Of a stretch of 25,678 bases of DNA, positions 1,816 through 20,193 are shown one piece after another. Each line of letters opens with the position of its first letter. The stretch's first letter is position 1. The stretch is from Candidatus Woesearchaeota archaeon. GTDB lineage: Archaea > Nanobdellota > Nanobdellia > SCGC-AAA011-G17 > GW2011-AR17. The translations under genes were made by a program, and so were the position numbers. Under the pieces are notes generated by a model, which worked only from the letters and a program-made list of their open reading frames with translations, searched no databases and was not told the DNA's origin. The stretch is from NCBI GenBank assembly GCA_043818535.1, contig JBDRFS010000042.1, positions 1-25,678 of the forward strand, read 5' to 3'.

Positions 1816-1957
1816 ATCTCCCAATAGCCATGCTTCCTGCCCTTGCCAGGAGCCCCTTCCCCTTCAACCTGCCAAGGTATTCTTTTACAGTATCCGGAGA
1901 TATCCCCAATTCTTTTGCCATCCCTTGCATGGTAATTCCCCTAATCATGGCAGGCAT
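1811..1957 (-). CDS. small helix-turn-helix protein (48 aa), below the ORF-track cut-off
   Basis: ATG at 1955-1957, TAG at 1811-1813, translation MPAMIRGITMQGMAKELGISPDTVKEYLGRLKGKGLLARAGSMAIGRF. The segment MAKELGISPDTVKEYL has the classic HTH pattern. Confidence 0.4.
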   Translation of the reverse strand: MPAMIRGITMQGMAKELGISPDTVKEYLGRLKGKGLLARAGSMAIGRF

Positions 1958-2023
1958 TTTCTGCTCAAGCCCAGTTGGCTTTTTTGGGGTTGCTGCCCTT
2001 TTGAATATTACAAATTGTCAAAA

Positions 2024-2523: not shown

Positions 2524-2544
2524 GGGCTTAACAGATTATTGAAG

Positions 2545-2583
2545 TTTAGGGCGAGGCTCAGCTAGAAACCCTGTGCGGCTTAA
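2545..2583 (+). repeat. inverted-repeat arm B (39 nt), partner at 1777..1815
   Basis: tttagggcgaggctcagctagaaaccctgtgcggcttaa matches the reverse complement of arm A at 34 of 39 positions. Confidence 0.8.
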
Positions 2584-2806
2584 TTCTTAATATCCGGTTT
2601 AAATTGAGTTTTTCGGCGATTTTGCTTATTTATACACCTTATAGTAAAAAGCGTATTATAATACATTTTTGTATTAGGAAGGGGCATAAATCCTTCCAAG
2701 TTGCAATGCACCTTCTGCCGCTTAAGATAGCTTTCTGCTCAGACAAAAGAAGCACCACAGGCTTCCATTAATGGGACTGGGTAAGGCCATGAGGGCACAG
2801 GAGGCT

Positions 2807-2877
2807 AAGTTCCTGCATAACAAGCAGCCTGCACTTCAAGGGTTAATTTGGGTGGAAGGCATTTAGCCTTTTCGCAG
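2807..2877. repeat. direct-repeat copy 2 (71 nt), covering the last 35 nt of the ygiQ-like CDS and 36 nt downstream
   Basis: Matches 2343-2413 at 68 of 71 positions. It includes the native stop codon at 2843-2845. Confidence 0.9.
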
Positions 2878-4390
2878 TGCCTCGCCCCGGCCTGCAGCGA
2901 AAGAGGATGCGCTTCTGCTCTTTCTTCTCAGAATATGTGTAGGGGACATGTACAGGCTTCTTGGTCCTAGGGTCAAGCCCAGTGTAATACATGCACGTGG
3001 ACAAGGTCATGGGGGTAGGGGTGAAGACTTGGACCTTTTCTGAATCCTCCAGCCCGCTCATTGCAGATGCAAGCTCCTTCGCCTCCTTCATGCCTGAACC
3101 CGGATGGGCTGTCATGAAATAAAAGGATATCTTCTTGCGCGTGCCCGTCTTTTTAAAAGCCTCAACAAACTTCCTGAAGTCGCCCCTGTCCTTGTTCATA
3201 AGCTGGAGCACTCCCTTGCTCACATGCTCCGGAGCAATCTTCAGCGTGCTGTAGACATGATGCATGGCCACTTCCCTGATGTACTCTTCTGATGCCAGGT
3301 CGTGCCTTATTCCGCTCCTTATGTAGACGTTCTTCACTCCGCTTATACGCCTTGCCTTCCTGAGCAGGCGCAGGAGCTTTTGGTTGCTTCGGTCAAGCCT
3401 GTTGCACCCTATGCAGTGGCCTTCCCTGCACTTGCTGCAGTCCATGCCGTACATGTTTGCAGACGGGCCGCCCATGTCGTCAATGTTTCCCTTGAAATAC
3501 TTTAGCTTTGTGATGCCTTCAATTTCTTTTAGAATAGATTCCTCTGACCTTGAGATTATACGCCTGCCCTGCAATAGCGTCAGTGAGCAGAAGCTGCACT
3601 CGCCTATGCATCCCCTGTGCGTGACTACGCTGAACTCAAATCCCCTCAGCTCTTTTGTGGGGGCCTTCCTGCTGAACCCCAGGCCATAGTACTCGTCAAG
3701 GTCTTTCTGGGAATATTCAGGATAGCGGTGCTGCACAACATAGCGGTTGTCAATCTTCTGTGCCAAGCACTTGCTGTTGCTTAGCATGTTTTGCATGTCG
3801 CAGAACCTTTCTTTTGAGTTCAGGACCTCCTCGTAGGAAGGGAGTTCAGAGAAGCCATTATTGCCCTGGCTTATCATGCAGGTGCCCCCAATCCCATCAA
3901 GCGGCTTTCCCGCCTTTATCCTTGAGGCAATCTCGATGACCTGCTTCTCGGCATTGCCGTAAGCAAGTATGTCAGCCCTTGAGTCAAATAGGATTGGCCT
4001 CCTGAGCCTGTTCTCCCAGTAGTCATAGTGCACAAGCCTCCTCAGGCTCGCCTCTGTGCCGCCAAGCACGATGGGCGTGCCCCTGAACTTATGCCTTATC
4101 CAGTTGCTGTATACTATCACCGCCCTGTCAGGGACTTCACCTGCGGATTCGCGTCTCCTCTTCATAGGGGTGTAGTTGCGCAGCATTGAATCTATGCATC
4201 CGCTGCTGACACCGAAGAAGAGCCTGGGCCTTCCAAGCCTTTCCACATCTTTCTCTTCCTTTGGCATCTCTATTATGCCAACAGAGTAGCCGTGCTTTTC
4301 CAGCAGCCTCTTCAGTATTGCTGCCCCGCAGAGGGGGTGGTCAAAGAACACTTCTCCGAGCACGAATATTATATCATATGCCATGAGCAT
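2843..4390 (-). CDS. ygiQ: YgiQ-family (UPF0313) radical SAM protein
   Basis: 515 aa. The N-terminus YDIIFVLGEVFFDHPLCGAAILKRLLEKHGYSVGIIEMP matches the YgiQ N-terminal domain pattern. It has the radical SAM motif HRGCIGECSFC (CxxxCxxC). Confidence 0.9.
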   Translation of the reverse strand: MLMAYDIIFVLGEVFFDHPLCGAAILKRLLEKHGYSVGIIEMPKEEKDVERLGRPRLFFGVSSGCIDSMLRNYTPMKRRRESAGEVPDRAVIVYSNWIRHKFRGTPIVLGGTEASLRRLVHYDYWENRLRRPILFDSRADILAYGNAEKQVIEIASRIKAGKPLDGIGGTCMISQGNNGFSELPSYEEVLNSKERFCDMQNMLSNSKCLAQKIDNRYVVQHRYPEYSQKDLDEYYGLGFSRKAPTKELRGFEFSVVTHRGCIGECSFCSLTLLQGRRIISRSEESILKEIEGITKLKYFKGNIDDMGGPSANMYGMDCSKCREGHCIGCNRLDRSNQKLLRLLRKARRISGVKNVYIRSGIRHDLASEEYIREVAMHHVYSTLKIAPEHVSKGVLQLMNKDRGDFRKFVEAFKKTGTRKKISFYFMTAHPGSGMKEAKELASAMSGLEDSEKVQVFTPTPMTLSTCMYYTGLDPRTKKPVHVPYTYSEKKEQKRILFRCRPGRGTAKRLNAFHPN

Positions 4391-5477: not shown

Positions 5478-6104
5478 TTACCTGTGCCCGTGCTTCCCTT
5501 TCAACGGCACAAAACAGAACCAGCCAAGCTCCTGTGTAATTGCTCTGCCTTTTTTCTTCTTAACTTTTAACATTGACTGCGTGTACAAGCCTCCTGAGGG
5601 GACAACCATTATGCCATTTTCCTTCAATTGCTTGAACAGATCTTCTGGAAAGCAAGGGGAAGCAGCAGTAACTATTATCCTGTCATAAGGTGCTTCTTTC
5701 TTGTAGCCTAATGAGCCATCACCATGAACAGTTTCAACATTCTTTATCCCGGCTGCTGAAATGTTGTTCTCCGCAAACCTTGCAAGCTCTTCAATTATTT
5801 CTATTGTGAAAACCTTCCCCCTGCTCCCTATAAGCTTTGAAAGTATTGCGGCTTGATACCCTGAGCCAGAGCCTACTTCCAACACCTTATCTCCTGCCTT
5901 TACTTCTAATGCTTCTGTCATTATTGCCACTGTAGACGGCTGTGAAATGGTTTGCTGAGCGTGTATTGGCAAGGGAATGTCTGCATAAGCATCTTTGATA
6001 TATTCCTTGAGAACAAACTTATCCCTTTGTACTTGAGAAATTGCTTTAACGACCTTCTTGCTTATTCCCCTTTCTTCCATCCTTCTAAAGAGGGATTCTT
6101 TCAT
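5478..6104 (-). CDS. pcm: protein-L-isoaspartate O-methyltransferase
   Basis: 208 aa. Contains the SAM motif VLEVGSGSGYQAAILSKLIG and the overall PIMT pattern (TISQPSTVAIM, APYDRIIVTAA). Confidence 0.9.
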   Translation of the reverse strand: MKESLFRRMEERGISKKVVKAISQVQRDKFVLKEYIKDAYADIPLPIHAQQTISQPSTVAIMTEALEVKAGDKVLEVGSGSGYQAAILSKLIGSRGKVFTIEIIEELARFAENNISAAGIKNVETVHGDGSLGYKKEAPYDRIIVTAASPCFPEDLFKQLKENGIMVVPSGGLYTQSMLKVKKKKGRAITQELGWFCFVPLKGKHGHR

Positions 6105-6122
6105 AAGTACTCTACAAAAAAA

Positions 6123-6136
6123 TAAGCTTATAAGCC
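6123..6136 (-). promoter_or_regulatory. putative TATA box for pcm, apparently leaderless
   Basis: The minus strand reads gaaaggCTTATAAGcttatt, centred about 26 nt upstream of the pcm ATG at 6102-6104. It abuts the nadB stop codon. Confidence 0.4.
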
Positions 6137-6139
6137 TTT

Positions 6140-7735
6140 CTAAGGATAATCAAGCCTGAGATGAGTGCCTATGCTCTCCTTTCTTTTTAAGGCAGAATCT
6201 ATTATTATCCCGGCAACTTCTGCAATGTTCCTCAGCTCCAGAAGGTTCAAGGTCACGATGTAGTGCCAGTAGTACTTGTTTATCTCTTCCTGTATAAGCC
6301 TTATCCTCCTCTTCGCCATCAGCAGCCTTTCCTCGTTCCTTGCTATGCCCACAAGGTTCCACATCATCCTTCTTGCCTCATCCCAGTTCTGCGCTACCTG
6401 CACCTCATCCCTGCTCTCAACAGCCTTGCCAATGTTCCACTCTTTTAGCTCAATGGCTTCCCTGTTGGAATTATTCAGCGCATGCGCCACTGCTGCTTTT
6501 CCGAAGAGTGCAGCTTCTGACAGCGAGTTGCTTGCGAGCCTGTTTGCGCCATGCAGCCCAGTGCACGCCACTTCCCCTATTGCGTAAAGCCCTTTTAATT
6601 CGGTTTCCCCGTTAATATTTACCTTTACCCCGCCACAGGTGTAATGCGCTGCCGGCACCACAGGAATAGGCTCTTTTGTTATGTCAATTCCCAGGCTAAG
6701 GCAATGCTGGCAGATTTCAGGAAAGCCTTCTTTTAATTCTTCGGCGCTTTTTCCTGTAACTTCCGGGGTGACATTGAGGTAGACATGGTCTAATCCCCTT
6801 TTCTTCATCTCAATGTCTATTGCCCTTGAGACAATGTCCCTTGTTGATGCAGAGCCGTCTTTATGATAGCCCAAGGCTTTTACAAAGTCTTCCTTTGAAT
6901 CCCTTTTAAGTACTAAAATCCCTCCGATGTTCTTCCCCCTGAGCGCTTCTGTTATCAGGAACCTCCTGTCATCCGGGCTTTTTGGAGAAGGGTTGTAGAG
7001 GCATGTTGGGTGGAACTGCATGAACTCCATGTTCTCTATTGTTAACCCTAGCCTTTTAGCCATAGCTATGCCGTCTCCAGTTGCTGTGTCAGGATTGCTT
7101 GTGTAGAGGTAAACCCTTCCTGCGCCCCCTGTTGCCAGGAATGTGGCTTTTGCAGAGAACGTTATTACCTTATTGCCTTTTGCGTCAAGAACGTATGCTC
7201 CCAGGCAAAGGCCCTCTCCTTTTATTCCTAGCTTTTTCTTTGTTATGAGGTCTATTGCCATATGGTCTTCGTATATGGTTATGTTGCTGTTTTCTCTTGC
7301 TTTTTTTTCTAGTGCTTCTTCTATCGCTTTTCCTGTGTAGTCTGCGACATGGAATATTCTTGGGGAAGAGTGCCCGCCTTCCTGGTGCAGGCTGTACTTG
7401 TAGCCTTTCTTTGATTCTGTGAACTTTACGCCTTCTTTGATTAATGGCAGGATTACGTCATTGAATGCGTTTTTTGCAAAGTATTCGACAACCTTTTTGT
7501 TGCAGATTCCGGCTCCTGCCTTTTCAGTGTCCTCTATATGTGATTCAAAAGAGTCTCCTTCAAGCGGGTGCTTGTTTGTTATTGGGACTGCTGATATGCC
7601 TCCCTGTGCGTAATATGTGTTTGCGTCTGTGAGTCTTTTTTTTGTGACTAAGGCTACCTTATGCTTGCTTAGCTCTAATGCAGCTCTTAATCCTGCTATT
7701 CCGCTTCCTATCACCAAGAAGTCTGTTTTTATCAT
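6140..7735 (-). CDS. nadB: L-aspartate oxidase
   Basis: 531 aa. N-terminal FAD fold DFLVIGSGIAGLRAAL, the motif FMQFHPT, and ACTGLHGANRLASNSLSEA typical of the NadB/SdhA flavoprotein family. The length favours NadB over SdhA. Confidence 0.88.
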   Translation of the reverse strand: MIKTDFLVIGSGIAGLRAALELSKHKVALVTKKRLTDANTYYAQGGISAVPITNKHPLEGDSFESHIEDTEKAGAGICNKKVVEYFAKNAFNDVILPLIKEGVKFTESKKGYKYSLHQEGGHSSPRIFHVADYTGKAIEEALEKKARENSNITIYEDHMAIDLITKKKLGIKGEGLCLGAYVLDAKGNKVITFSAKATFLATGGAGRVYLYTSNPDTATGDGIAMAKRLGLTIENMEFMQFHPTCLYNPSPKSPDDRRFLITEALRGKNIGGILVLKRDSKEDFVKALGYHKDGSASTRDIVSRAIDIEMKKRGLDHVYLNVTPEVTGKSAEELKEGFPEICQHCLSLGIDITKEPIPVVPAAHYTCGGVKVNINGETELKGLYAIGEVACTGLHGANRLASNSLSEAALFGKAAVAHALNNSNREAIELKEWNIGKAVESRDEVQVAQNWDEARRMMWNLVGIARNEERLLMAKRRIRLIQEEINKYYWHYIVTLNLLELRNIAEVAGIIIDSALKRKESIGTHLRLDYP

Positions 7736-7860: not shown

Positions 7861-7931
7861 GCGCTGGTAGTCTACCGGTAGGATTCGACCCTCCCAAGGT
7901 CGAGAAGCGGGTTCGATTCCCGCCCGGCGCA
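7861..7931 (+). tRNA. tRNA-Gly(CCC), no encoded CCA
   Basis: Hand-folded cloverleaf. Acceptor GCGCTGG/CCGGCGC with one T-G pair. D arm GTCT-ACCGGTA-GGAT. Anticodon stem CGACC/GGTCG with loop CTCCCAA (anticodon CCC). Variable region AGAA. T arm GCGGG-TTCGATT-CCCGC. Discriminator A. Total 71 nt. Confidence 0.85.
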
Positions 7932-9892: not shown

Positions 9893-10588
9893 TTAAATCA
9901 GGCCTTGCTTTTCCAAGTAAGAGAATCCTTCTTTCCTTAGATGCCCAATATCATATAGCGTATGGGAGTCGCTGTTTACATAAATCCTTTCTGCAGCAGA
10001 TAGTAATAAAGGTAATTTTTCAAGGTCGGTTTTTCCATAAAAAAGATTTGCACAGTTCAATTCTGGAGGTATTGAAAAACTATTGGCAGCTTCTATTACT
10101 TGGCCTATATCTAAATGTCCAGAAAAAGAGCTTGCACAGAGATGTCCTAAGCAGTCAATCTTAGAATTGTATTTTTCCAAAGCCCGCAAATAAGCCTCAG
10201 TTATTTTTTCAGGGTTGCCCTGATAAACTCCCCTATGAGCTGATAAAATAATAAAATCTTTGCCTTTGCTATAAGCTTCAAAATCCACTTCCCCATCTTC
10301 ATCAAGGAGGTCTGCTTCAACCCCAAAGATAACTTTAACATCATTGTGGATGTTCTTCCATCTTTTGGTATTTGAACCGCTTGTTTTCTTTGGGATTCTT
10401 TTTGATTCTAAATGGGATATGGAGTGGTCAGTAATTGCAAGTTCCGTTAAGCCAACTTTTCCAGCCTGAACTACAAGTTCATCAATTGAGTTTGCACCAT
10501 CCGAAAACGTAAACGTATGCGAGTGGTAATCGCCTTGAAGGTTAATTATTTCCATTTTAAAGGAAATCAAAAGTGGGTTTTTAAACAT
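9893..10588 (-). CDS. PHP-domain (histidinol-phosphatase-like) metal-dependent phosphoesterase
   Basis: GDYHSHTFTFSDGANSIDELV...AITDHS is a PHP motif I/II pattern, with DSH near the C-terminus. The true start may be M12 (ATG at 10553-10555, MEIINLQGDYHSH), because a TATA-like gctatataat at about 10598-10610 leaves ATG 10586-10588 too close. Confidence 0.78.
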   Translation of the reverse strand: MFKNPLLISFKMEIINLQGDYHSHTFTFSDGANSIDELVVQAGKVGLTELAITDHSISHLESKRIPKKTSGSNTKRWKNIHNDVKVIFGVEADLLDEDGEVDFEAYSKGKDFIILSAHRGVYQGNPEKITEAYLRALEKYNSKIDCLGHLCASSFSGHLDIGQVIEAANSFSIPPELNCANLFYGKTDLEKLPLLLSAAERIYVNSDSHTLYDIGHLRKEGFSYLEKQGLI

Positions 10589-10699
10589 TGCTTACCTAAA
10601 CTCTTTATTATATAGCTCGAAACAATCTAAGTGATGTTTCACCAATTGACTTCCCACCCCTATAGGAAAAGGCAAGGCGGCTGCTAAAAAAGAAAAAAA

Positions 10700-11638
10700 T
10701 TAAAATTTAGGGTCAATGCCCTTAGATTTCTGGTATTCTTCAGTTGTTATTACCTTGTCAGACCAAATCTCTTTTACAACCAAGCCTTTTTGTTTACCAT
10801 CTTCTTCGGAAGAGTCTATTGCCCAATGGTAATGCCCATCATCCCGAAGAAGGTTTGAGTTAAGGTTCACTATCCTGAAAACACTTGGCAAGTTATCCAA
10901 TAAACCACAAATATTGTCAGGTGTGACTTGCGGTACTTCCCTCAATAATGAAGAATGCCTGCCCATTAAGTCCGAATAGGATTCTATTACTCCCTTGCCT
11001 GCTCCCTCAACTTCAGGAGTAACTCTCCAGTCAACTTGCGGACGTTTCCGCAGGCCTCTTACCACCATTTTCATTCTTGACAAAACAGTTGTCTCGCAAG
11101 CCATGGTAGTTGCAACCGGATTGAAATGTGCCCTCTCACCTTTTGCAAGCTCGTCAACCATATATGCAAAGCCAACCAAGCCTTCCCCAAGGTTTTCCTT
11201 CTCGACATTTTCCATTATGCCGTCTATTGTCCAGTTAGGCATAATTTTTTTACTCGCGACAGTTACCGGGTCTACAACAGGTGATATTGTAACCAGATCC
11301 TCTTCAGGAAAATAAACATCAGTCGGATTAATTGCATTAGGCTTCCCTTGTTTTAGGCCAAATACTGGATGTGTATAGATGTCGTGAAGCTTTTGTATAG
11401 CGCCAGTAACTGTTGTTGTATATTTATCCTGTAATGTCCTTACATGCAGGAAATATTGTGTCAGTTCTTTAGTTTCAGGGTAATAACCTTCAACAGGATA
11501 ATTGCCCAGCGGAAAACCTGCGTCTTTCAATGCCTGCTCTGCAACAGGAAGCATTTCTGTCTCAAATGCTTTCATATACCTTCGCACTGTAGCATCTACA
11601 GCTTGGAAATAATCAAAATTTTCTATTATTTTTACCAT
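10700..11638 (-). CDS. hypothetical protein, no family recognised
   Basis: 312-aa ORF with ordinary globular composition. Only a weak antisense ORF competes with it. Confidence 0.7.
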   Translation of the reverse strand: MVKIIENFDYFQAVDATVRRYMKAFETEMLPVAEQALKDAGFPLGNYPVEGYYPETKELTQYFLHVRTLQDKYTTTVTGAIQKLHDIYTHPVFGLKQGKPNAINPTDVYFPEEDLVTISPVVDPVTVASKKIMPNWTIDGIMENVEKENLGEGLVGFAYMVDELAKGERAHFNPVATTMACETTVLSRMKMVVRGLRKRPQVDWRVTPEVEGAGKGVIESYSDLMGRHSSLLREVPQVTPDNICGLLDNLPSVFRIVNLNSNLLRDDGHYHWAIDSSEEDGKQKGLVVKEIWSDKVITTEEYQKSKGIDPKF

Positions 11639-11860: not shown

Positions 11861-11877
11861 AAAGGCTTATATAGGGG
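11861..11877 (+). promoter_or_regulatory. putative BRE/TATA promoter of the AT-rich operon
   Basis: aaaggCTTATATAgggg has its TATA centre about 32 nt upstream of ATG 11902, implying a very short or absent leader. It shares the consensus seen at 4558, 6123 (minus strand) and 8087. Confidence 0.5.
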
Positions 11878-11901: not shown

Positions 11902-12042
11902 ATGAAACATCAAACAAGTATAACCATAAATGAAGAAGTAATGTTAAAGGTTAAAGAGAAACTAAGAGATTGTTCTTTTAGGAACCAGTCTCATTTGTTT
12001 GAATTTGCAGTAAGAAAACTTCTAGAGGGAGATGAAAAATGA
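11902..12042 (+). CDS. ribbon-helix-helix (CopG/MetJ-like) DNA-binding protein, 46 aa, below the ORF-track cut-off
   Basis: MKHQTSITINEEVMLKVKEKLRDCSFRNQSHLFEFAVRKLLEGDEK shows a beta-strand (TSITIN), helix, RNxS turn and second helix. Its TGA (12040-12042) overlaps the next ATG (12039-12041) as ATGA. Confidence 0.6.
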   Translation: MKHQTSITINEEVMLKVKEKLRDCSFRNQSHLFEFAVRKLLEGDEK

Positions 12043-13427
12043 AACTCCTAGTGATAAATCCGCCAAATGAACCTTTCAGCGAAAGAAGTCTCCTCATAGA
12101 ACCTATTGATGTCTTAGGGGTTGCTACTTATGCAAAATCTATAGGCAACGATGTAAAATTGGTGGATATGGATGTTAAACAACAAACTCCAGAATCACTT
12201 GAAGAGACTTTAAAGGATTTTAGACCTTTCCTCACAGTAATCCCTTTTGATTATCATATTCCCTTACATACTTCTAAGGCAGTAGATGGTATTAATAGAA
12301 TTAGCAGCTTAGCCAAAGAGTATGGATCAAAGGTAGCAGTTGCTGGAAAAACTTCAAAGCACTACCCGGATTTATTCTTAAATGGAGGTGCAGATGTTGT
12401 AATTAATGGTGAAATTGAACTTACATTGAGTGATTTAGTCCACTTAAGTTTGTGGAACCCTTCTGAACTAATGAAGATACAAGGAATAACATATGCAAAT
12501 AATGGAGAGACCATATCCACTAAACCAAGAAGAACAAGAATAAACCTTGATTCTCTCCCAATTCCTGAAAGGGAATTAGTTGATTTGTCTGATTATATTG
12601 ATGTAAGAACCATACTAACCAGCAGAGGCTGTATGGGGAGATGTAGTTTTTGTCCTACACCTAATTACTGGGGCAATTGGAGAGCTAGAAGTCCTCGAAA
12701 TGTAGTAGATGAGATTGAAGAGTTAGTTACTAAATCTGGTGCAAAAAAAATTCTTTTCTTAGATGATAATGCAACTGTAAATAAAGATAGGATGAAACAG
12801 ATTTCAAGAGGCATTATGGATCGTGGAATTGATGTTACTTTAGGCTGTTTAGGGACAATTTCAGCTTATGATAGAGAAACTATAGGACTCATGCAGGTTG
12901 CTGGATTTAGATGGATCCATTATGGTGCAGAATCTGGAAATTCCGCAATCTTAAAAGCCAATGGAAAGAATATTACTCCTGAACAGATTAAAAAAGCAGT
13001 TAAAGAAACAAAAGATGCAGGTCTTAGGGTTAGGACTAGTTGGATTTTTGATCTGCCAGGCACAAACGAAGATACTTTACAGGAAACAATAGATTTAATT
13101 CTTGAGACGGAACCTCATGAAATTCGGGCCCATTATCTTGCTTTACGTGCTGGAACAGATATGTATAAACAAGCAGCAGAGGGACAAGTATTACCTTCAC
13201 AATATATTCACACTAAAGAACCAATGCTGAGCTTATCTGGATATAATCAACATAAAATAACAGAGAAAGTAAGAGAACTAAAAGAAGAATTGCAAAACAA
13301 AGGTTATTTGGTTATAGATGATGTAACAGCGTGGAGAGATATAGATAAATTGAGGGACCAAGATCCTCAGTTGAGGTTTATTTCCTTTTGTCCCTCAAAA
13401 TATGGTTTAAACTGGGAGCAAAAATGA
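12039..13427 (+). CDS. B12-binding-domain radical SAM protein (class B type)
   Basis: 462 aa. N-terminal Rossmann-like MKLLVINPP...VKLVDMD...VAVAGK, as in cobalamin-binding domains. SRGCMGRCSFC supplies C198/C202/C205 (12630-12653). Confidence 0.88.
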   Translation: MKLLVINPPNEPFSERSLLIEPIDVLGVATYAKSIGNDVKLVDMDVKQQTPESLEETLKDFRPFLTVIPFDYHIPLHTSKAVDGINRISSLAKEYGSKVAVAGKTSKHYPDLFLNGGADVVINGEIELTLSDLVHLSLWNPSELMKIQGITYANNGETISTKPRRTRINLDSLPIPERELVDLSDYIDVRTILTSRGCMGRCSFCPTPNYWGNWRARSPRNVVDEIEELVTKSGAKKILFLDDNATVNKDRMKQISRGIMDRGIDVTLGCLGTISAYDRETIGLMQVAGFRWIHYGAESGNSAILKANGKNITPEQIKKAVKETKDAGLRVRTSWIFDLPGTNEDTLQETIDLILETEPHEIRAHYLALRAGTDMYKQAAEGQVLPSQYIHTKEPMLSLSGYNQHKITEKVRELKEELQNKGYLVIDDVTAWRDIDKLRDQDPQLRFISFCPSKYGLNWEQK

Positions 13428-14110
13428 GGAAAACAAAAGAAATTCTGGAAGAAGAAAATACCAATAGCTTTTTGTTAGGAGTAACTGGCTCAATTGGGTG
13501 TGGAAAAACACATGTTTGTCATACATTAATAGATATAGCCTCAAATCAAGGACTTTCATTGTCTTATGTAAACTTAGATACTATTAGAAGACAAATTTTG
13601 GGTACAGAATCACGTTATGCTCATCTAAGATTACAATTATCAGATCATTTTGGAGAGAGAATAACAAAGTTAGATGGATCCATTGATGGTAAAGAACTAG
13701 GTCAAATAATCTTTTATGATTCTGATGCAATGAATTATTTTAGAAATTTAATATCTCCTGCTATTGATCAAGAGCTTGAGATTGAAACTCAAGATAAAAA
13801 AGGCTTGGTTTTAGTTGAATGGGCTCTTTTAGTTGAAGATGGTTTGCTTCCTTTGGTAAAAGGTGATGTCTTAGTCACAACATGTAGTTATGATAAACAA
13901 ATAGCTAGATTGATGGGTGGCGATCTACCCTTGAATCAAATATTAAAGAGAAGGAGTAATCAATTAACTAACAGTGAAAAAATAGAAAAAATTAGAGCAT
14001 ATCAACAAGATACTGGGGGGGGGAAGCTTTATGTTTTTGATACAACTGAAAATCCTTCAAAAGGCCAATACAGGGCTCTATTAGAAAAAATAATCCAAGG
14101 TGTAAAATGA
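13424..14110 (+). CDS. dephospho-CoA kinase (CoaE)-like P-loop kinase
   Basis: Walker A LLGVTGSIGCGKTHV. VEWALLVE and CSYDKQIARLMGG parallel the CoaE PLL.E and Q..RL..R blocks. Start is placed at ATG 13424, which forms ATGA with the upstream stop and has GGGAG 9 nt upstream. The track start at 13388 would overlap by 40 nt. Confidence 0.75.
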   Translation: MRKTKEILEEENTNSFLLGVTGSIGCGKTHVCHTLIDIASNQGLSLSYVNLDTIRRQILGTESRYAHLRLQLSDHFGERITKLDGSIDGKELGQIIFYDSDAMNYFRNLISPAIDQELEIETQDKKGLVLVEWALLVEDGLLPLVKGDVLVTTCSYDKQIARLMGGDLPLNQILKRRSNQLTNSEKIEKIRAYQQDTGGGKLYVFDTTENPSKGQYRALLEKIIQGVK

Positions 14111-15096
14111 AAAAAGAAAAAGTTGTAAAGGATTTTGAACCAGAATTAGAGAATTATTCCTTTTGCTTATTTAGATTGCCTGAAGAAGGTGGAAGAGTAA
14201 TTTGGGAAATCACAAATAGTTGTAATTACTCATGTGGTTATTGTATCTTTAGTGCAGAAAAGGGAAGAATTCCAGATGAACTTACAAATGAAGAAGTATT
14301 TGAAGTTCTAGAAGGATTAAAGGAAAGGGAATTTAGCCACTTAAAATTAACTGGTGGAGAACCGTTTATTAGAAAAGATTTCATGGACATATTAAAACAA
14401 TCTTCGAACTTAGGATTTATTGTGGATGTTTCAACTAACGCTTCCTTAATAACTGCTGAAAAAGCGAGGACAATAAAAGACTTAGGTGTACAAATGGTCC
14501 ATGTTAGCATTGATGGTCATAACCAAGAGTTACATGAATTAGCACGTGGAAAAAACACATATCAAAGGACAATTAGAGGTCTTCAACACCTAATCGATAA
14601 TGATGTGAACGTGAGAGTTGGTACAGTAATTTTCAAAGCAAATGAAGATTATTTAAGTAAGATGGTAGACTCTGCAGCGGCTCTTGGTGCAAATGAGATC
14701 ATATTTTCTTTTATGGAACCAGTAGGAAGAATGAAGGATGATTATTCTATGATATCATCTAGGCCTATTCTTGAAGTAAAAAGTAAAATTGAACAATTAG
14801 CTGAACAATATGTTGGACAAATTCAAGTTAAGCATAGTTTCACAGAAGATGCAAAACATAATGAACAAGGTACCTGTCCAGCAGTTAGGAAATTCCTTTA
14901 TATTGATAATTTAGGAACAGTATCTCCTTGTACTTGGGTAGTAGAACAAAATCCAAAATATAGATCTAATTTAACTGTGAAAGAGGCAAGTTTTGATGAA
15001 GTTATGAATTCAAAACCGATTAGATCATACTTATCTTACATTGAAAGATTAAATAATGAAGAGATTAAAGGTTGTCCTGTGAGAAGAAGATGTTAA
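14107..15096 (+). CDS. radical SAM protein with C-terminal twitch/SPASM-like Cys cluster
   Basis: 329 aa. NSCNYSCGYC supplies C39/C43/C46 (14221-14244). The C-terminus CPAVRKFLYIDNLGTVSPC fits Cx12Gx4C, and the protein ends GCPVRRRC. The start forms ATGA with the kinase stop. Confidence 0.85.
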   Translation: MKKEKVVKDFEPELENYSFCLFRLPEEGGRVIWEITNSCNYSCGYCIFSAEKGRIPDELTNEEVFEVLEGLKEREFSHLKLTGGEPFIRKDFMDILKQSSNLGFIVDVSTNASLITAEKARTIKDLGVQMVHVSIDGHNQELHELARGKNTYQRTIRGLQHLIDNDVNVRVGTVIFKANEDYLSKMVDSAAALGANEIIFSFMEPVGRMKDDYSMISSRPILEVKSKIEQLAEQYVGQIQVKHSFTEDAKHNEQGTCPAVRKFLYIDNLGTVSPCTWVVEQNPKYRSNLTVKEASFDEVMNSKPIRSYLSYIERLNNEEIKGCPVRRRC

Positions 15097-16124
15097 CAGA
15101 ACAGAAATGGGATATAGAAGATTCACTTAGTGATAAATCTATTACTCAAGACATTGAAAAGCTGTTTGATAAAGACTTAGAATACAATTTACAACCTAAT
15201 AGGAAATTTAGCAGATTTTCTCCAATGTATTCTTTTGCTACTGAGAACTTATCAGGCTACTTTCCTGTATTGCCAATGCAAGGGAAGAAAATCTTAACTG
15301 TGAGTGGTTCTGGTGATCATATTATAAATGCTTATATGTTTGGTGCAACAGAAGTTGATGCATTTGATGTAAATATTTTGTCAGCATTTATCTCCGAACT
15401 AAAATTACAGGCGCTAAAAGAATTATCTTTTAAAGAATTTAAAGGGTTCTTTTTAAGAGAAAGCCCAAACAGTTCAACATATAATCTTAATGCCCTAGAT
15501 TTTGAGGTCTATAAACAGTTAAAGGGAGGACTATCTCATTTCTGCTCCTTATTCTTTGATAAAGCCTATGAATACTTTGATTTTGATGGTTCTCGTTTAA
15601 GAGAATCTTACCTTTTCAATAACAAATATGATTTAAATCAGAAGAAGATCCAGAATAATCCTTACTTACAGTCTAAGCATAACTTTGAGGAGGTAAAAAG
15701 ACTTAGCAGAAAGAATCATAATAGGCAGATAATAAGTGAGGTTCAGAATTTAGGAGAATTACTTGGAAAAAAACAGTCGTTTGATGTTATACTTCTCTCA
15801 AACATAGTCGATTATGCTAAAATTATGTTTCCAGAATCTAAAGAATACTTGGGAGCTTTTTGCGATTCTGTTATAGAACCGTTAAAGATGCATTTGACAG
15901 AAGAAGGGATTATCTGTGCGGCTTATATTTATGTTGATGATAATAACCCCTATTCAAAATATAGAACTGAAGTACATAATCCATTATCAAAGTATAGAAG
16001 TGCTATTGATGATCCTGAAAAAAGGAGGCTTGTCTTTCAGGGTAGTGGGATGAAATATTATGAGATAACATTCGAAAGTGTCATCCCTGAAGAAAAAGAT
16101 GCAGTTGTATTACTGCAAAAATAA
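15090..16124 (+). CDS. DUF3419 / BtaA-like SAM-dependent enzyme
   Basis: KKILTVSGSGDHIINAYMFGATEVDAFDVNILSAFISELKLQALKELSFKEFKGFF parallels the DUF3419 pattern (I.S.G.n...A.D.N..Q..L.eLK...l..L.y.ef). FDVILLSNIVDY occurs later. ATG 15090 (ATGTTAA overlap with the upstream stop) is preferred to the TTG at 15072. Confidence 0.72.
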   Translation: MLTEQKWDIEDSLSDKSITQDIEKLFDKDLEYNLQPNRKFSRFSPMYSFATENLSGYFPVLPMQGKKILTVSGSGDHIINAYMFGATEVDAFDVNILSAFISELKLQALKELSFKEFKGFFLRESPNSSTYNLNALDFEVYKQLKGGLSHFCSLFFDKAYEYFDFDGSRLRESYLFNNKYDLNQKKIQNNPYLQSKHNFEEVKRLSRKNHNRQIISEVQNLGELLGKKQSFDVILLSNIVDYAKIMFPESKEYLGAFCDSVIEPLKMHLTEEGIICAAYIYVDDNNPYSKYRTEVHNPLSKYRSAIDDPEKRRLVFQGSGMKYYEITFESVIPEEKDAVVLLQK

Positions 16125-16139
16125 TAGGAGGAAAATAAA

Positions 16140-16655
16140 ATGGAACCATTGAAAAAACTAAAAGCAACATATGGAAGTGAGGATATAAACAATCTCGTAG
16201 ATTTTACAAGACGAGCACCCATAGAACTTCCGGAAAGCAAGACGTACCGTTTCGAGAAAGTAGGCTCTGTAATACACATATATGGAGAAGATTCTGGAAT
16301 AAACCAGTATAACATTGCGGATTTAAGTGAGGGAATGTCCTTAAAGGGAATAAAAACAACACCTCAAGCAATAGAAATAAATCTTTCTTTTGAAGGAATA
16401 GAGAAAATACTATTGCATACTAAGCCTTATAAATGGACAAAAGTTGGAAGAAGGAAAACTTCCAGTGTAAGTTCTTTAGTAAGTAGTATATCTAGCTGCT
16501 TGTCTGGAGAAAGTCGTTCTTCTGGTGAATCTGCCGGGATTAATGGAGAAAGCAGAGGATCAGGCTCCAGTGGAGAATCTAGCAGTTCTTCTGGAGAGAG
16601 CAGACGTCCATCTTCCAGTGGAGAATCTAGTGGTTCTTCTGGAGAATCTCGTTAG
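16140..16655 (+). CDS. 171-aa protein with a globular N-terminal part and a Ser/Gly/Glu-rich tail carrying seven (S/N)GES units
   Basis: The strongest Shine-Dalgarno site in the operon (AGGAGG at 16126-16131, 8 nt before the ATG). The tail reads SGESRSSGESAGINGESRGSGSSGESSSSSGESRRPSSSGESSGSSGESR and ends the protein. No signal peptide. Confidence 0.75.
   Translation: MEPLKKLKATYGSEDINNLVDFTRRAPIELPESKTYRFEKVGSVIHIYGEDSGINQYNIADLSEGMSLKGIKTTPQAIEINLSFEGIEKILLHTKPYKWTKVGRRKTSSVSSLVSSISSCLSGESRSSGESAGINGESRGSGSSGESSSSSGESRRPSSSGESSGSSGESR
16503..16652 (+). repeat. degenerate in-frame tandem repeats encoding the (S/N)GES units
   Basis: gga gaa/gag agt/agc/tct recurs seven times. The last two units lie in a near-duplicate of about 40 nt (tccagtggagaatctagNNgttcttctggaga at 16567-16598 and 16612-16643). 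Confidence 0.8.
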
Positions 16656-16674
16656 CATGAGGAATTAAATTAAG

Positions 16675-17679
16675 ATGTTGAATGAACAAGAGTTACAAAG
16701 ATTACATACCAATCAAAGATTGTTGGTTCTAGAACTTCAACGTAGAGATATCAATGTTAAAGTGATTGATAGGGGATTAGAATTGCTTGAGGCATTTTAT
16801 AACAGGCATAAGGAATTTATTTTAGATAGGGATTCTTCTATAAACCCTTACCCTGCTTCAGTTATTAGTGGGAATAAGTGTCTTGCTAAAAATTTATTAA
16901 AAGAAGCTGGAATAAGTGTTGTAAAGGGGGAACAGTTTTATTCTGACCAACTAGACGATGCGCTTATTTATTCCCAAGAAATAGGTTTTCCAATTGTAGT
17001 AAAACCAAATTTTGGATCTCATGGAGATGGTGTTCATATGGATTTGGAGAATCTATGCCAAGTAAAAGAAGCATTTGATAAGGTTATAAAGTTAATAGGA
17101 ACTTCAAGAGCTTTCCTTGTAGAAGAACAGTTTGAAGGCAAGGAATATAGAGTATTTATTACTGAGAATGGAGATTATGCAGTACTTCATAGAGACCCTG
17201 CTCATGTTATAGGAGATGGCAAGAAAACAATAGAACAACTAGCAAAAGAGGAATCTTTTAAAAGGATGAACCCTAGGACAACTTGTCTTTGTCCAATCAG
17301 ATTAGATGATGTTGTGAATGGATATTTGGCAAGAAGTGGAAAAGACTTAAACTTTATCCCTAAAGAAGATGAAAAAATTTATCTCAGGCATAATTCTAAT
17401 GTGGCGGCAGGAGCGACATGTGAAGATTATACAGATAAAGTACATCCTTCAGTGATAGAAATTTCTAAAAAAGCATTAGAAGTTTTCCATGGATTGCCTT
17501 ATGCAGGAATGGATTTCCTTAGCAAAGATATATCTGTTGAACAGGATAAAAATAGCTATAGGGTTCTAGAAGTGAACTCAATTCCTGGAATTCATATGCA
17601 TATGAGGCCTGGAGAAGGCAAACCTAGAAATGTTGCACAATATCTTGTTGATATGATTTTCCCGGAGACAAGAACATGA
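16675..17679 (+). CDS. ATP-grasp ligase of the cyanophycin-synthetase G-domain type, with no Mur-ligase domain
   Basis: 334 aa. FPIVVKPNFGSHGDGV, PAHVIGDGKKTIEQL and LEVNSIPGIHMHMRPGEGKPRNVAQYLVDMIFP closely follow the CphA pattern EVNaaPG.rMHl.P.eG.pRnV....vd.LFP (recalled motif). GAGGA lies 11 nt upstream of the start. Confidence 0.82.
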   Translation: MLNEQELQRLHTNQRLLVLELQRRDINVKVIDRGLELLEAFYNRHKEFILDRDSSINPYPASVISGNKCLAKNLLKEAGISVVKGEQFYSDQLDDALIYSQEIGFPIVVKPNFGSHGDGVHMDLENLCQVKEAFDKVIKLIGTSRAFLVEEQFEGKEYRVFITENGDYAVLHRDPAHVIGDGKKTIEQLAKEESFKRMNPRTTCLCPIRLDDVVNGYLARSGKDLNFIPKEDEKIYLRHNSNVAAGATCEDYTDKVHPSVIEISKKALEVFHGLPYAGMDFLSKDISVEQDKNSYRVLEVNSIPGIHMHMRPGEGKPRNVAQYLVDMIFPETRT

Positions 17680-18374
17680 AACAATATAGCTTATCCGAAG
17701 GCTCAAAAAGTTATCATGATGAAGCCTATATATATGAACACTTTAGTCAAGTAGAGGATATTCCTGGAAATATTCTACGTTTCTTGGAACCCTTAGTTAA
17801 AAGTAAGGATGTTTTAGACCTTGGTTGTGGAACTGGCAAGTATTTGGTTTCTTTAGCACCATTAGCTAAAAGTTATTGCGGGTTGGATATTTCATCTGAT
17901 CAATTGGGGATTGCAAAATCTAAAGTTAATAATATTTGTAATGTAAATTTTTTATGTTCATCTGCAGAATCAATTAATCTCCCTAATGAAAGCATTGATA
18001 CTATAATTTCTACTTGGGTGTTAAGTACTATTCTAGATGAAAAAAGAAGAGTAAAGGCTCTCAAAGAAGCAGAAAGAGTTCTTAGAACAAATGGAAATAT
18101 TTACTTAGTAGAGAATGACATAGGTGGAGAATTTGAAATGATTAGGGGAAGATATCCTGATATAACAAGAACTAAAACATATAATGGTTGGGTAGAAGCC
18201 CAAGGTTTTAAGATTGCAAAACGTTTAAACACTTATTTTGAGTTTGAATCATTAGAAGAAGCAAAAAAAGTTATAACTTCTATATGGGGCAAAGAAGCAG
18301 CTACAAAAGTCAAGGGTAAAAGAATATATCATAAGATACTGATATACCACAAGAAAAAGAGCGACATAGAGTAA
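17676..18374 (+). CDS. class I SAM-dependent methyltransferase
   Basis: 232 aa. Motif I is VLDLGCGTGKY, with post-I LDIS and DTIISTWVL. The start forms ATGA with the ATP-grasp stop. Confidence 0.85.
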   Translation: MKQYSLSEGSKSYHDEAYIYEHFSQVEDIPGNILRFLEPLVKSKDVLDLGCGTGKYLVSLAPLAKSYCGLDISSDQLGIAKSKVNNICNVNFLCSSAESINLPNESIDTIISTWVLSTILDEKRRVKALKEAERVLRTNGNIYLVENDIGGEFEMIRGRYPDITRTKTYNGWVEAQGFKIAKRLNTYFEFESLEEAKKVITSIWGKEAATKVKGKRIYHKILIYHKKKSDIE

Positions 18375-18577: not shown

Positions 18578-18656
18578 TTTTTTGTACACTATGACTCATT
18601 TTATTTCTTAGATTCAGTTTATCGTCGTAGTTTTCTGTTTTTTGAGTAATTTTTTA

Positions 18657-18672
18657 GAAAGATTTATATATG
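18657..18672 (+). promoter_or_regulatory. putative TATA box of the transposase gene
   Basis: gaaagaTTTATATAtg is centred about 30 nt upstream of ATG 18697. ATG 18670 lies inside this box and is therefore an unlikely start. Confidence 0.45.
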
Positions 18673-18696
18673 ATTAGTGTATATCTATACACTAGA

Positions 18697-20193
18697 ATGG
18701 CTTTTATTCGTAAAATCAAAAGGGGAAAATATACTTACTTAGCTGAAGTTGAGAATAAATGGATCAAAGGAAGAGTAGTGCAAAAACATATTCGTTATGT
18801 TGGTAGGCAGTTGAATGGAAAGATAATAAAATCTGGCTCAATAGGAAATATTGAAGTTACGAAAGTAATTACTTGGGCACCCTTACTTGTTTTGAATACT
18901 TTAGCTAAACAGATTCATTTGTCTGAGATTCTTGGCGATTATGGTGATTATTTACTGAGTCTTGCTTATGCTCATTGTCTGGATCCTAAAAGTGTCAATA
19001 AGATGGAAGACTGGTTTAGTAGGACAGATCTTCATAGCATGTTGAACATCAATGAAGTGTCTGAAAAGGAGTTGTATTTTGCTATGGATTCAATAACTGA
19101 AAAAAATTCTGATACAATCCAGAAAAAGATTTTCAATTCAGTGAAATATGTTCATAACTTAAAACCAAAAGGATATTTTTTTGATGTTACTAATGCTTAC
19201 TTTTATGGAACCGAATGCTGTATTAGCAAGAAAGGGCATAACAAAGAAGGCAAAAATAAACCGCAAGTCCAAATTGGTCTTGCAGTAACTGAAGAAGAAG
19301 GAATACCCATATTTCATAAGACTTTTGAAGGGAATATTCATGATTCAAGAATTCTAAAAGACATGATGGTCATGTTTCATGATTTAAACATCAAAGATGT
19401 TTTTATTGTGTGGGATAGAGGCATAACTTCAGAAGAGAATATTACCGACGCTAAACAAGTAGGATTTGAGGTGATTTGTGGTTTAGCAATAAAACAAAAT
19501 GTTAAAAAACAGGTTGATCAAATAAAGGAAAACGAATCTTTTCTAAAACTCAAAAATAGAGTAAGATTAAAGAAGACTGTATTATATTGTCTAAAACAAA
19601 AATACAAATATGGTGATATTAACGGACACATGATTGTCTGTTTCAATGAAGAAACTGCAAGACTAAACAAAGAAAAAAGAATTGATAATATTTACAAAGC
19701 AAAAGAACTTCTAAAGAAAAATAAACCAATATCAGAAGGCATAAAAAAATATTTCAAAGAAAATGAGATCAATGAAGAAGTATTACTTGAAGCTCAAAAA
19801 TATGATGGATATTCAAGTTTATTCTCAACAAAAGATTTAGAGATTGAAAAGATTGTGAAACATTACTTTGAAAAGGATAAAGTAGAAAAAGCATTCAGAA
19901 GCTTAAAAAGTGTTTTGGGACTAAGACCGATAAAACACTGGCTCGAAGAACGAGTAAAATCACATATATTCATCTGCTACTTATCATATTTGTTAATCAC
20001 ATTATTAGAGCATAAACTAAAATCAAAAGATATTTCAGCCATTGAAGCACTGGACAAATTAAGCACAGCATACAAAGTTCACATTAAAAACAAAAAGCTC
20101 AAAGAAGAATTTACTAAAACAGTAACATTAACAAAGGAACAAGAAACAATCATGAAGGCTGTAGACAAAAAGATTCTAAAACCTAGTGTATAA
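18697..20193 (+). CDS. IS1634-family DDE transposase
   Basis: The N-terminus MAFIRKIKRGKYTYLAEVENKWIKGRVVQKHIRYVGR is typical of this family. DDE-region blocks are FFDVTNAYFYG, FIVWDRGITSEENI and YFEKDKVEKAFRSLKSVLGLRPIKHW. The track ORF starts at 18670. Confidence 0.88.
   Translation: MAFIRKIKRGKYTYLAEVENKWIKGRVVQKHIRYVGRQLNGKIIKSGSIGNIEVTKVITWAPLLVLNTLAKQIHLSEILGDYGDYLLSLAYAHCLDPKSVNKMEDWFSRTDLHSMLNINEVSEKELYFAMDSITEKNSDTIQKKIFNSVKYVHNLKPKGYFFDVTNAYFYGTECCISKKGHNKEGKNKPQVQIGLAVTEEEGIPIFHKTFEGNIHDSRILKDMMVMFHDLNIKDVFIVWDRGITSEENITDAKQVGFEVICGLAIKQNVKKQVDQIKENESFLKLKNRVRLKKTVLYCLKQKYKYGDINGHMIVCFNEETARLNKEKRIDNIYKAKELLKKNKPISEGIKKYFKENEINEEVLLEAQKYDGYSSLFSTKDLEIEKIVKHYFEKDKVEKAFRSLKSVLGLRPIKHWLEERVKSHIFICYLSYLLITLLEHKLKSKDISAIEALDKLSTAYKVHIKNKKLKEEFTKTVTLTKEQETIMKAVDKKILKPSV

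Follow-up and report, generated by a model that had tools for sequence, protein, structure and literature searches.

The 25,678-nt stretch of DNA analysed here (the window), from a contig labelled as a Candidatus Woesearchaeota metagenome-assembled genome (MAG), carries an operon of eight genes. This operon probably encodes a self-contained post-translational modification system, a reading to which we give a probability of about 0.6. The dedicated substrate would be a repeat protein (hereafter REP) whose tail displays E-S-R motifs, the core step would be carried out by a stand-alone ATP-grasp ligase, and the other enzymes, i.e. two radical S-adenosylmethionine (SAM) enzymes, a CoaE-type kinase, a DUF3419 enzyme and a methyltransferase, would be additions to this core. 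A preliminary description of this DNA had proposed an undescribed peptide- or scaffold-modification system. As far as computation reaches, our analysis supports this proposal and refines the nucleus of the system to REP and the ATP-grasp ligase. The domain identities that it had assigned to the six enzymes, including the CphA type of the ATP-grasp, were confirmed by Pfam and NCBIfam.

The tail of the window REP contains seven G-E-S-x motifs (positions 16506-16652; four ESR, one ESA and two ESS). The seven G-E-S copies use differing Ser and Arg codons, and a 48-nt duplication (81% match, 16544-16646) explains part of the array. In the AlphaFold2 (AF2) model, the predicted local distance difference test (pLDDT) score exceeds 90 for residues 1-100 and is below 50 for the tail, as expected of a disordered segment. 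No fold match was found for the folded domain when compared to the PDB with Foldseek (best E-value 0.47). Homology search retrieved 12 relatives of REP, which share a conserved N-terminal domain of ~100 amino acids (aa) and a tail with 4-9 G-E-S-R motifs; in their alignment with REP, every tail ends with GESR, followed or not by W, Y or WW. A profile search with the REP family found 77 clusters among 1.84 billion representatives, and distant members of the REP-domain family carry one or few GES(R) motifs in tails that end in Gly or SGER. Since 146 copies of [G/S]-E-S were counted in 30 distinct proteins and copies are encoded by different codons, the repeat is no chance feature. The next residue is Arg in 132 of these 146 copies. 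Hence, the repeat noticed in the preliminary description is real, and the family-wide motif is [G/S]-E-S-R instead of (S/N)GES.

Archaeal REPs carry the motif in a C-terminal tail behind the folded domain. Bacterial REPs have the reversed architecture: they start with MSESRGGESR, have 2-7 E-S-R motifs in an N-terminal stretch rich in Ser and Tyr, and finish with a C-terminal domain, charged and helical, whose last residues are often G-E-[E/D]-R. They show no similarity to the archaeal N-terminal domain, and the motif alone is common to both types. Such retention of one tripeptide in an otherwise exchanged protein would be expected if co-inherited enzymes read it as their substrate or as an attachment motif. 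Variants of the motif were also observed, namely S-S-E-S-R (L006), G-E-S-N (L005), [S/G]-E-N (Micavibrio) and G-D-E-N (P0045). Glu is the most constant position, being kept in nearly all tail variants. A short form of REP (58 aa, MSESRGESR...) was found in a lineage of mouse-gut MAGs (L007/L027). Besides, an unrelated protein of 209 aa (P0093) was matched through its repeat only: it contains seven perfect tandem copies of VSEGESRS and shows that proteins other than those of the REP family can also acquire arrays of GESR.

The ATP-grasp ligase is most closely related to the G domain of cyanophycin synthetases. Its match to the cyanophycin synthetase model TIGR02068 (9e-69, 232 bits versus a cutoff of 850) spans the G domain only (profile positions 167-474 of 862), and G domains of CphA1 are the nearest relatives with a solved structure (7wac CphA1, 1.7e-44). 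The roles of residues in the CphA1 G domain, where Arg458 holds the incoming Asp, have been described (PMC9427784) and were used for mapping. All 31 sequences compared have the equivalents of Arg309 and Asn394 of TeCphA1, and 27-30 of them retain the equivalents of His267, Arg323 and Gly456. The window enzyme keeps five of the six mapped catalytic residues, the sixth, Arg458, being replaced by His. This His is found in full cassettes, and Gly or Ala occupies the position in L052, L055 and L056 and in the divergent L018 and L023. From these sequences, the nucleophile appears to differ between system types.

L052, L055 and L056, whose REPs are among the distant members of the REP-domain family, are also informative about gene content. 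L052 (60% GC) encodes REP followed by an ATP-grasp 49% identical to that of the window, and the 12.8 kb fetched around them contain no radical SAM gene. The 3.4-kb contig of L055 shows the order REP-ATP-grasp and the 7-kb contig of L056 the order ATP-grasp-REP-ATP-grasp, again with no radical SAM gene in view. The ATP-grasps of these three loci are 47-49% identical to that of the window. In L053, which also encodes a distant REP, this gene is followed by a B12 radical SAM gene. Since the pair is also found in loci without radical SAM gene in view, REP and the ATP-grasp are the nucleus of the system. Furthermore, given its conserved catalytic positions and its pairing with REP, the ATP-grasp is most probably an active carboxylate-amine ligase working on REP. 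Its subfamily comprises at least 358 clusters, annotated merely as hypothetical protein or, automatically, as cyanophycin synthetase, and one gut cluster alone was found on more than 100 contigs. In L056, the two ATP-grasp paralogues (CphA-G type, 1-969 and 1819-2865, 46% mutual identity) flank a REP-like gene (1082-1807) whose product has a tail with a single S-S-E-G motif and the end ...SRSSG.

Loci were gathered from the neighbourhoods of REP and DUF3419 homologues and from a one-genome-per-species scan seeded with the DUF3419 alignment, and the gene content of the fetched loci was mapped by open reading frame (ORF) calling and BLAST. The same enzyme set was found in ~32 independent loci, in at least three gene orders. 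Archaeal hosts belong to DPANN (Woese-, Pace- and Nanoarchaeota), to which two contigs binned as Methanosarcinales have to be added. Bacterial hosts include ~22 MAGs with the label Clostridia or Bacilli (human and mouse gut samples being the source of several), one Peribacteria and one Micavibrio genome. A repeat ORF is present in every complete locus except two divergent ones. Three sub-blocks are fixed: the B12 radical SAM gene precedes the CoaE gene in all 27 cases, DUF3419 precedes REP in 28 of 30 and REP precedes the ATP-grasp in 24 of 27, so that the adjacency of a repeat ORF to these enzymes, which the preliminary description had proposed to look for elsewhere, holds in archaea and bacteria. 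Other arrangements exist, for instance in L001 (radical SAM, REP, ribbon-helix-helix, B12 radical SAM, CoaE, DUF3419, ATP-grasp, methyltransferase) and in L004, where REP is detached. Moreover, some of the genes are fused: that of the twitch radical SAM is joined to CoaE in L039 and to DUF3419 in L018 and L023. Such Rosetta-stone fusions connect the enzymes with one another. For each of the six enzymes, the catalytic residues are conserved among orthologues.

Both radical SAM proteins contain the CxxxCxxC motif, as noticed earlier. The first one had also been credited with a B12-type N-terminal domain: a match is indeed present (1.4e-05), with a score of 25.3 bits that remains under the Pfam cutoff of 32.1, and several orthologues have a precomputed PF02310 match on record, unmarked as to cutoff. 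Its best NCBIfam models (BchE, HpnJ, PhpK and the methyl-coenzyme M reductase (MCR) Gln C-methyltransferase) all describe class B enzymes, with scores far below cutoffs. Five Cys are invariant in 27 orthologues (C198, C202, C205, C270 and C451), two of them beyond the cluster motif, and the C-terminus shows a conserved FCPSKYGxxWE. The second radical SAM protein has CNYSCGYC as cluster motif and a SPASM match just above cutoff (2e-4). The Cx12Gx4C ... Cx5C tail reported previously is present in the window protein, both parts included, but conservation among 31 orthologues does not extend to the last Cys of the Cx5C pair. It comprises C20, C39/C43/C46, C257, C275 and C323, the last three being found in 30-31 of the 31 orthologues. 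C257, C275, C323 and possibly C20 make up one conserved auxiliary-cluster set. In the mouse-gut lineage with the short REP, the B12 radical SAM and ATP-grasp genes are broken by frame disruptions (6117-7506 and 10123-11134), which could reflect a decaying cassette or an assembly error.

The kinase marginally passes the dephospho-CoA kinase model TIGR00152 (68.4 bits, cutoff 65.55), and its bacterial orthologue in L019 lies just under this cutoff (64.7 bits). Alignment with CoaE structures indicates that the P-loop, the Asp equivalent to that of the DxD motif (D33 in E. coli), the lid Arg and the CoA-domain helices are kept; G19-K28, D52 and R162 are conserved among orthologues. Because the gene is coupled to the B12 radical SAM gene wherever the pair was scored and is fused to the twitch radical SAM gene in L039, the context, as read from sequence, argues against a housekeeping role in CoA synthesis.

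The PF11899 match of the DUF3419 enzyme is above cutoff (32.3 bits versus 28.2) and partial, covering 64 of 385 profile positions; the 18 close homologues of this enzyme all have a PF11899 match on record. Its AF2 model (pLDDT 88) shows a class I methyltransferase fold with large insertions, and its structural matches are generic class I methyltransferases (TM-score up to ~0.4, mostly 0.3-0.4). Profile search of PDB sequences found no solved relative. Sequence and modelled fold would fit methyl transfer and 3-amino-3-carboxypropyl transfer alike and cannot separate them. Distant DUF3419 paralogues (L040-L051) occur without the cassette. Some of them, in Muribaculaceae and Bacilli MAGs, are found as tandem arrays of 3-6 paralogues or as a single copy (L043 151-5574, L046 6780-9698, L045 2511-3380); in these three loci, an ORF with a NUDIX box lies 47-75 nt 3' of the DUF3419 genes, without radical SAM or REP genes. 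This DUF3419-NUDIX association is separate from the cassette. As for the methyltransferase, it is dispensable for the cassette since it is absent from L006, L020, L021 and L037.

From the gene set, its conservation, the fusions, the motif, the intact catalytic residues and the pairing of REP with the ATP-grasp, which are direct observations, we infer the role of REP as substrate, the residue modified, each chemical step and the fate of the product. REP would dock the enzymes by its non-repeat domain (N-terminal and folded in archaea, C-terminal and helical in bacteria), which would act as a leader or follower peptide, and its disordered tail rich in Ser and Gly would present 2-9 copies of [G/S]-E-S-R. 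The CphA-G-type ATP-grasp would perform the ancestral core reaction, i.e. phosphorylate a carboxylate of the tail and join an amine to it. Since Glu is the residue kept in nearly all tail variants, its side chain is the most likely target, otherwise the C-terminal carboxylate. The Arg two residues past Glu may be read as the G domain of CphA reads the Arg of its beta-Asp-Arg primer. In extended cassettes such as that of the window, the add-on module would further process this same motif or the group joined to it: the two radical SAM enzymes may act on unactivated carbons (C-methylation or cross-link), DUF3419 and the methyltransferase may transfer SAM-derived groups (methyl or 3-amino-3-carboxypropyl) and the kinase may phosphorylate a hydroxyl. 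Because neither protease nor exporter is encoded, the product is probably intracellular, either a modified protein or a peptide-derived small molecule freed by housekeeping proteases.

Various lines of evidence favour such a modification system: conservation in ~32 loci, gene fusions, persistence of the E-S-R ORF, adjacency of REP and ATP-grasp, predicted disorder of the tail behind a confident fold and catalytic conservation in the six enzymes. In addition, precedents are known in which a ligase, kinases and a methyltransferase work on a scaffold peptide (PMC13622209). Other observations weigh against it. The Peribacteria and Micavibrio loci have no clear E-S-R protein. Pfam annotation of the loci and clustering of their flanks revealed no conserved RiPP recognition element (RRE) or PqqD-like domain, peptidase or exporter; this is unusual for a peptide of ribosomal synthesis with post-translational modification (RiPP), and the idea of a classical secreted RiPP is unsupported. 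The score of the kinase exceeds the cutoff of the dephospho-CoA kinase model, and the enzyme retains the substrate-domain helices of CoaE. NUDIX genes lie beside seven cassettes (L001, L006, L007, L028, L030, L035 and L038) and also follow cassette-free DUF3419 paralogues, a CinA/PncC-like gene is found at three archaeal loci and NT5C and NTPase genes at others. Given these recurring nucleotide-metabolism genes and DUF3419-NUDIX pairs, a nucleotide-like substrate or group is possible for part of the pathway.

By analogy, the operon would function as do radical SAM systems for RiPP or protein modification in which a short core is repeated, and it also resembles carrier or scaffold systems. When compared with the defining features of Hxs/triceptide-type, LysW/LysX and fosfazinomycin-type systems, the cassette belongs to none of them. 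Like radical SAM RiPP systems, it has a linked precursor with a core motif and a maturase with CxxxCxxC and a SPASM/twitch domain. To our knowledge, no RiPP class includes a CoaE-type kinase, a DUF3419 enzyme or a CphA-G-type ATP-grasp. The Hxs system consists of a precursor with H-x-S repeats (HxsA), two radical SAM proteins (HxsB and HxsC) and HxsD. It shares with the cassette, as do triceptides, a small linked ORF with many motifs of 3-4 residues beside radical SAM enzymes, one of them with a SPASM/twitch domain. However, the motif of the cassette is E-S-R, with neither His nor aromatic residue, its precursor has a folded domain of ~100 aa (a follower domain in bacteria), and RRE, protease and exporter are lacking. 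For either radical SAM protein, the 25 best NCBIfam matches include none of the Hxs models. Pyrroloquinoline quinone (PQQ) and mycofactocin pathways are also intracellular and devoid of exporter, with a SPASM radical SAM enzyme acting on a motif containing Glu (PqqA) or on a C-terminal motif (MftA) and possibly a methyltransferase. Unlike the cassette, they have an RRE chaperone (PqqD, MftB), a dedicated peptidase and short precursors with a single core, and the NCBIfam models PqqE and MftC matched the window far below cutoffs.

The best surviving alternative is that REP is a carrier, as had already been raised in the preliminary description, or a primer, working with the logic of LysW and LysX; we consider it rather unlikely. 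The ATP-grasp would then tether an amino acid or amine to Glu or C-terminal carboxylates, and the remaining enzymes would remodel this molecule before its release or before growth of a CphA-like polymer. As for lysW and lysX, the nucleus is a small protein gene beside an ATP-grasp gene, with a kinase and more enzymes clustered, and a folded handle followed by a flexible tail with acidic residues would fit the modelled architecture of REP. The closest relatives of the ATP-grasp, the G domains of CphA1 and CphA2 and the GshF module, extend the carboxylates of peptides or primers with amino acids (PMC9427784), and their chemistry, an acyl-phosphate on a peptide carboxylate followed by an amide, is that expected here. 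The exchange in the nucleophile pocket at the Arg458 equivalent, from His in full cassettes to Gly or Ala in loci with REP and ATP-grasp only, is also expected if the attached molecule differs. However, no release hydrolase is conserved in the cassette, which lacks equivalents of LysY, LysJ and LysK as well. REP is unrelated to LysW: it has neither the Zn-ribbon nor the EDWGE tail and displays many attachment motifs instead of one. The ATP-grasp belongs to another clade, being far nearer CphA-G (~1e-69) than LysX (1.7e-10 with LysX_arch). The strict conservation of Ser and of Arg, the latter in 132 of 146 copies, exceeds the need of a simple attachment point. CphA1 itself differs in having three domains (N, G and M), of which the cassette ATP-grasp is the G domain only, and in working on a polymer primer instead of a ribosomal protein.

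Pearlin-type scaffold pathways, such as that of fosfazinomycin, in which assembly takes place on the C-terminal Arg of a peptide (PMC13622209), mix RiPP and small-molecule logic in a similar way. They share with the cassette a ribosomal peptide ending with Arg, a carboxylate-activating ligase, kinases and a methyltransferase. Their ligase is nevertheless asparagine-synthetase-like or a PEARL, whereas that of the cassette is an ATP-grasp. The motif of the cassette is internal and repeated (N-terminal in bacteria), and the cassette has no peptidase.

Still less likely is a pathway to a free small molecule, such as a nucleoside or nucleotide bearing modifications, a compound resembling CoA or the head group of a lipid, with REP not as substrate but as an accessory, for instance a regulator, a chaperone or an immunity factor. 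Such a pathway would account for a kinase that is a bona fide member of the CoaE family above its equivalog cutoff and for the NUDIX, CinA-like and PLD-like genes near some cassettes. The twitch radical SAM protein shows about equal resemblance to MoaA-type enzymes and to peptide maturases. BtaA, the one member of DUF3419 known to be characterised, acts on a lipid. In diacylglyceryltrimethylhomoserine (DGTS) synthesis, BtaA and BtaB associate a SAM-dependent transferase of this family with a class I methyltransferase, and by analogy a 3-amino-3-carboxypropyl group could be transferred to a hydroxyl, in the cassette possibly that of Ser, and then methylated. However, the DUF3419 match of the cassette is partial, lipid genes are lacking and the methyltransferase is absent from several cassettes. 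B12 radical SAM enzymes acting on nucleotides exist as well: OxsB, a PDB match of the window enzyme, and SinC, involved in sinefungin synthesis (bioRxiv 10.64898/2026.05.21.726688). An analogy with sinefungin, in which the B12 radical SAM would adenosylate Arg and the kinase phosphorylate a ribose, was considered and rejected for want of sequence support: a partial SinC* shares 20% identity with the window B12 radical SAM (E-value 2e-5, generic), and SinF resembles a kinase of the aminoglycoside-phosphotransferase type, not of the CoaE type. A PHP-domain gene of the window recalls the phosphatase SinD of the sinefungin cluster; this looks coincidental, and the gene is not conserved at other loci. 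A free small molecule leaves unexplained why REPs from both domains of life keep one short motif in common and otherwise differ, and why REP and the ATP-grasp are still found together at loci where none of the other cassette enzymes is in view. No riboswitch was found 5' of the cassette, and nucleotide-related neighbours occur at a minority of loci, none being in the window.

An anti-phage or conflict system, such as a viperin-like maker of nucleotide analogues, is very improbable, as the preliminary description had judged in preferring biosynthesis or modification to defence: PADLOC pVip models do match the second radical SAM protein (1.9e-24) beside a nucleotide kinase, an arrangement known for pVips, the cassette forms a low-GC island beside an insertion sequence (IS) in the window and in L011, and Mob-like genes lie near some gut loci, but the pVip match covers the generic radical SAM core only (residues 32-189), the C-terminus is of SPASM/twitch type, the L019 orthologue scores 71 bits versus a cutoff of 180 with the NCBIfam viperin model, phage, plasmid and IMG/VR collections gave no match, and the cassette has no nuclease, sensor or abortive-infection component.

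Searches aimed at a name for the system gave the following results. Among the proteins of the operon and of the bacterial locus L019, nothing exceeded NCBIfam cutoffs except the generic dephospho-CoA kinase match, itself marginal, and neither type of REP was matched; this agrees with the earlier view that the enzyme set corresponds to no named pathway. In the window, PADLOC found only generic radical SAM and methyltransferase matches. Phage and plasmid collections were searched by tblastn with the L019 DUF3419 orthologue and IMG/VR was scanned, in both cases without match. An Rfam scan of the window and seven loci at gathering thresholds found tRNAs only, hence no riboswitch. Literature searches (DUF3419 with radical SAM, ATP-grasp or RiPP; GESR; kinase with precursor peptide; cyanophycin) returned no description of the cassette, an earlier in-silico mention in the 2009 amidoligase paper of the Aravind group being possible, and the graspetide survey covers a different ATP-grasp clade. 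The cassette is conserved, unnamed and without described product.

We know of no precedent for the combination of a B12 radical SAM, a twitch radical SAM, a CoaE-fold kinase, a BtaA-family transferase and a cyanophycin-type ligase. If the modification system proposed here is real, it would represent a new class of ribosomal-protein or peptide modification and would imply functions of DUF3419 outside lipids, of a CoaE homologue outside CoA synthesis and of a CphA-type ligase on proteins. Carriers of the cassette are small-genome archaea and many uncultured gut bacteria. Its 6.5-kb size and the known candidate substrate gene make the system directly testable. More speculatively, and only as a tentative proposal, REP and the CphA-G-type ATP-grasp might constitute an unrecognised widespread tail-ligase system, tagging as Pup does or carrying as LysW does. 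The two radical SAMs, the CoaE-type kinase and the BtaA-type transferase would have been recruited to it in DPANN, the candidate phyla radiation (CPR) and many Firmicutes of human and mouse gut, where they might turn E-S-R units into a new, heavily modified residue or into a peptide-derived cofactor or metabolite by a chemistry found in no RiPP class.

Table 1. Features of the operon and of its surroundings in the window
Feature	Position	Strand	Remarks
BRE/TATA-like archaeal promoter element AAAGGCTTATATAGGGG	11861..11877	+	sequence reading, putative function; ~25 nt 5' of first ATG
46-aa ribbon-helix-helix-like protein	11902..12042	+	window copy itself without Pfam match
Putative class B radical SAM enzyme (B12-type N-terminal domain), 462 aa	12039..13427	+	Radical_SAM 4.9e-26; cluster motif CMGRCSFC
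CoaE-family P-loop kinase	13424..14110	+	Pfam CoaE 1.2e-21; directly 3' of B12 radical SAM gene
Radical SAM enzyme with single-cluster SPASM/twitch-type C-terminal domain, 329 aa	14107..15096	+	Radical_SAM 8.4e-28
DUF3419 (BtaA-family) SAM-dependent transferase, 344 aa	15090..16124	+	PF11899 8e-08
REP, 171 aa	16140..16655	+	folded domain at residues 1-100 (16140-16439), then S/G-rich tail predicted as disordered, ending ...SGESR
Stand-alone ATP-grasp ligase, cyanophycin synthetase G-domain / GshF type, 334 aa	16675..17679	+
Class I SAM-dependent methyltransferase, 232 aa	17676..18374	+	Methyltransf_11 1e-19
Perfect 14-nt palindrome TTTGTGTACACAAA	18379..18392		4 nt past methyltransferase stop codon
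Palindrome-related TTTTGTACAC	near 18581..18590
IS1634-family transposase	18670..20193		NF033559, 3.8e-84; directly 3' of operon
312-aa protein	10700..11638	-	no family match; divergent from operon
PHP-domain phosphoesterase	9893..10588	-	divergent from operon
tRNA gene	7861..7931	+	host gene unrelated to operon
Protein-L-isoaspartate O-methyltransferase	5478..6104	-	host gene unrelated to operon
Radical_SAM_N/DUF3362-type radical SAM protein	2843..4390	-	host gene unrelated to operon

The operon is compact (eight + strand ORFs, 11902-18374, 6.5 kb). Its layout as given in the preliminary description was found again in the sequence at the same coordinates, including the promoter-like element, the five start/stop overlaps (ATGA at 12039, 13424, 14107 and 17676, ATGTTAA at 15090-15096) and the gaps around the repeat gene. 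The 15-nt gap 5' of this gene, TAGGAGGAAAATAAA, contains AGGAGG, and the 3' gap is 19 nt long. The position of the putative promoter suggests a leaderless or short-leader operon transcript. In archaeal loci, the first gene keeps its place 5' of the gene for the B12 radical SAM, and its orthologues in L001, L005 and L011 are 76-79% identical to the window copy, with RHH_1 matches below cutoff (E-values 0.002-0.005); this ribbon-helix-helix-like protein is probably the regulator of the operon.

GC content is 30-36% across 11.7-20.5 kb, which includes the operon (31-36%) and downstream DNA, versus 44-50% in the rest of the contig, the low-GC stretch extending to ~20500. A similar contrast was observed in L011 (cassette 37%, flanks 51%). 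The low GC of the window cassette and the adjoining transposase gene suggest that it was acquired by horizontal transfer. Flank clustering detected sporadic NUDIX, Mob-like, ABC, CinA-like and PLD-like neighbours only, none of them in the window. A PLD-like family flanks three archaeal cassettes (PLDc_2, 4.7e-06, just under cutoff), and a second flanking family has a CinA/PncC-like domain (5.8e-06, above cutoff in L006). The PLD-like and CinA-like genes are located at 1623-2507 and 9358-10230 in L001, 3757-4614 in L004, 3992-4786 in L006 and 2303-3166 and 3319-4113 in L016. The L005/L009 contig belongs to SAG AM-311-M09, a single-cell genome with the label Nanoarchaeota; besides the cassette, it encodes a full four-region sigma-70 factor (1899-3065, - strand). 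This contig may be bacterial or chimeric, or the sigma-70 gene may have been transferred. In the window, the genes of the PHP-domain protein and of the 312-aa protein lie in DNA of intermediate GC, and neither of them is kept beside the cassette in other loci. The palindrome located just past the methyltransferase gene could be a terminator or an element boundary.

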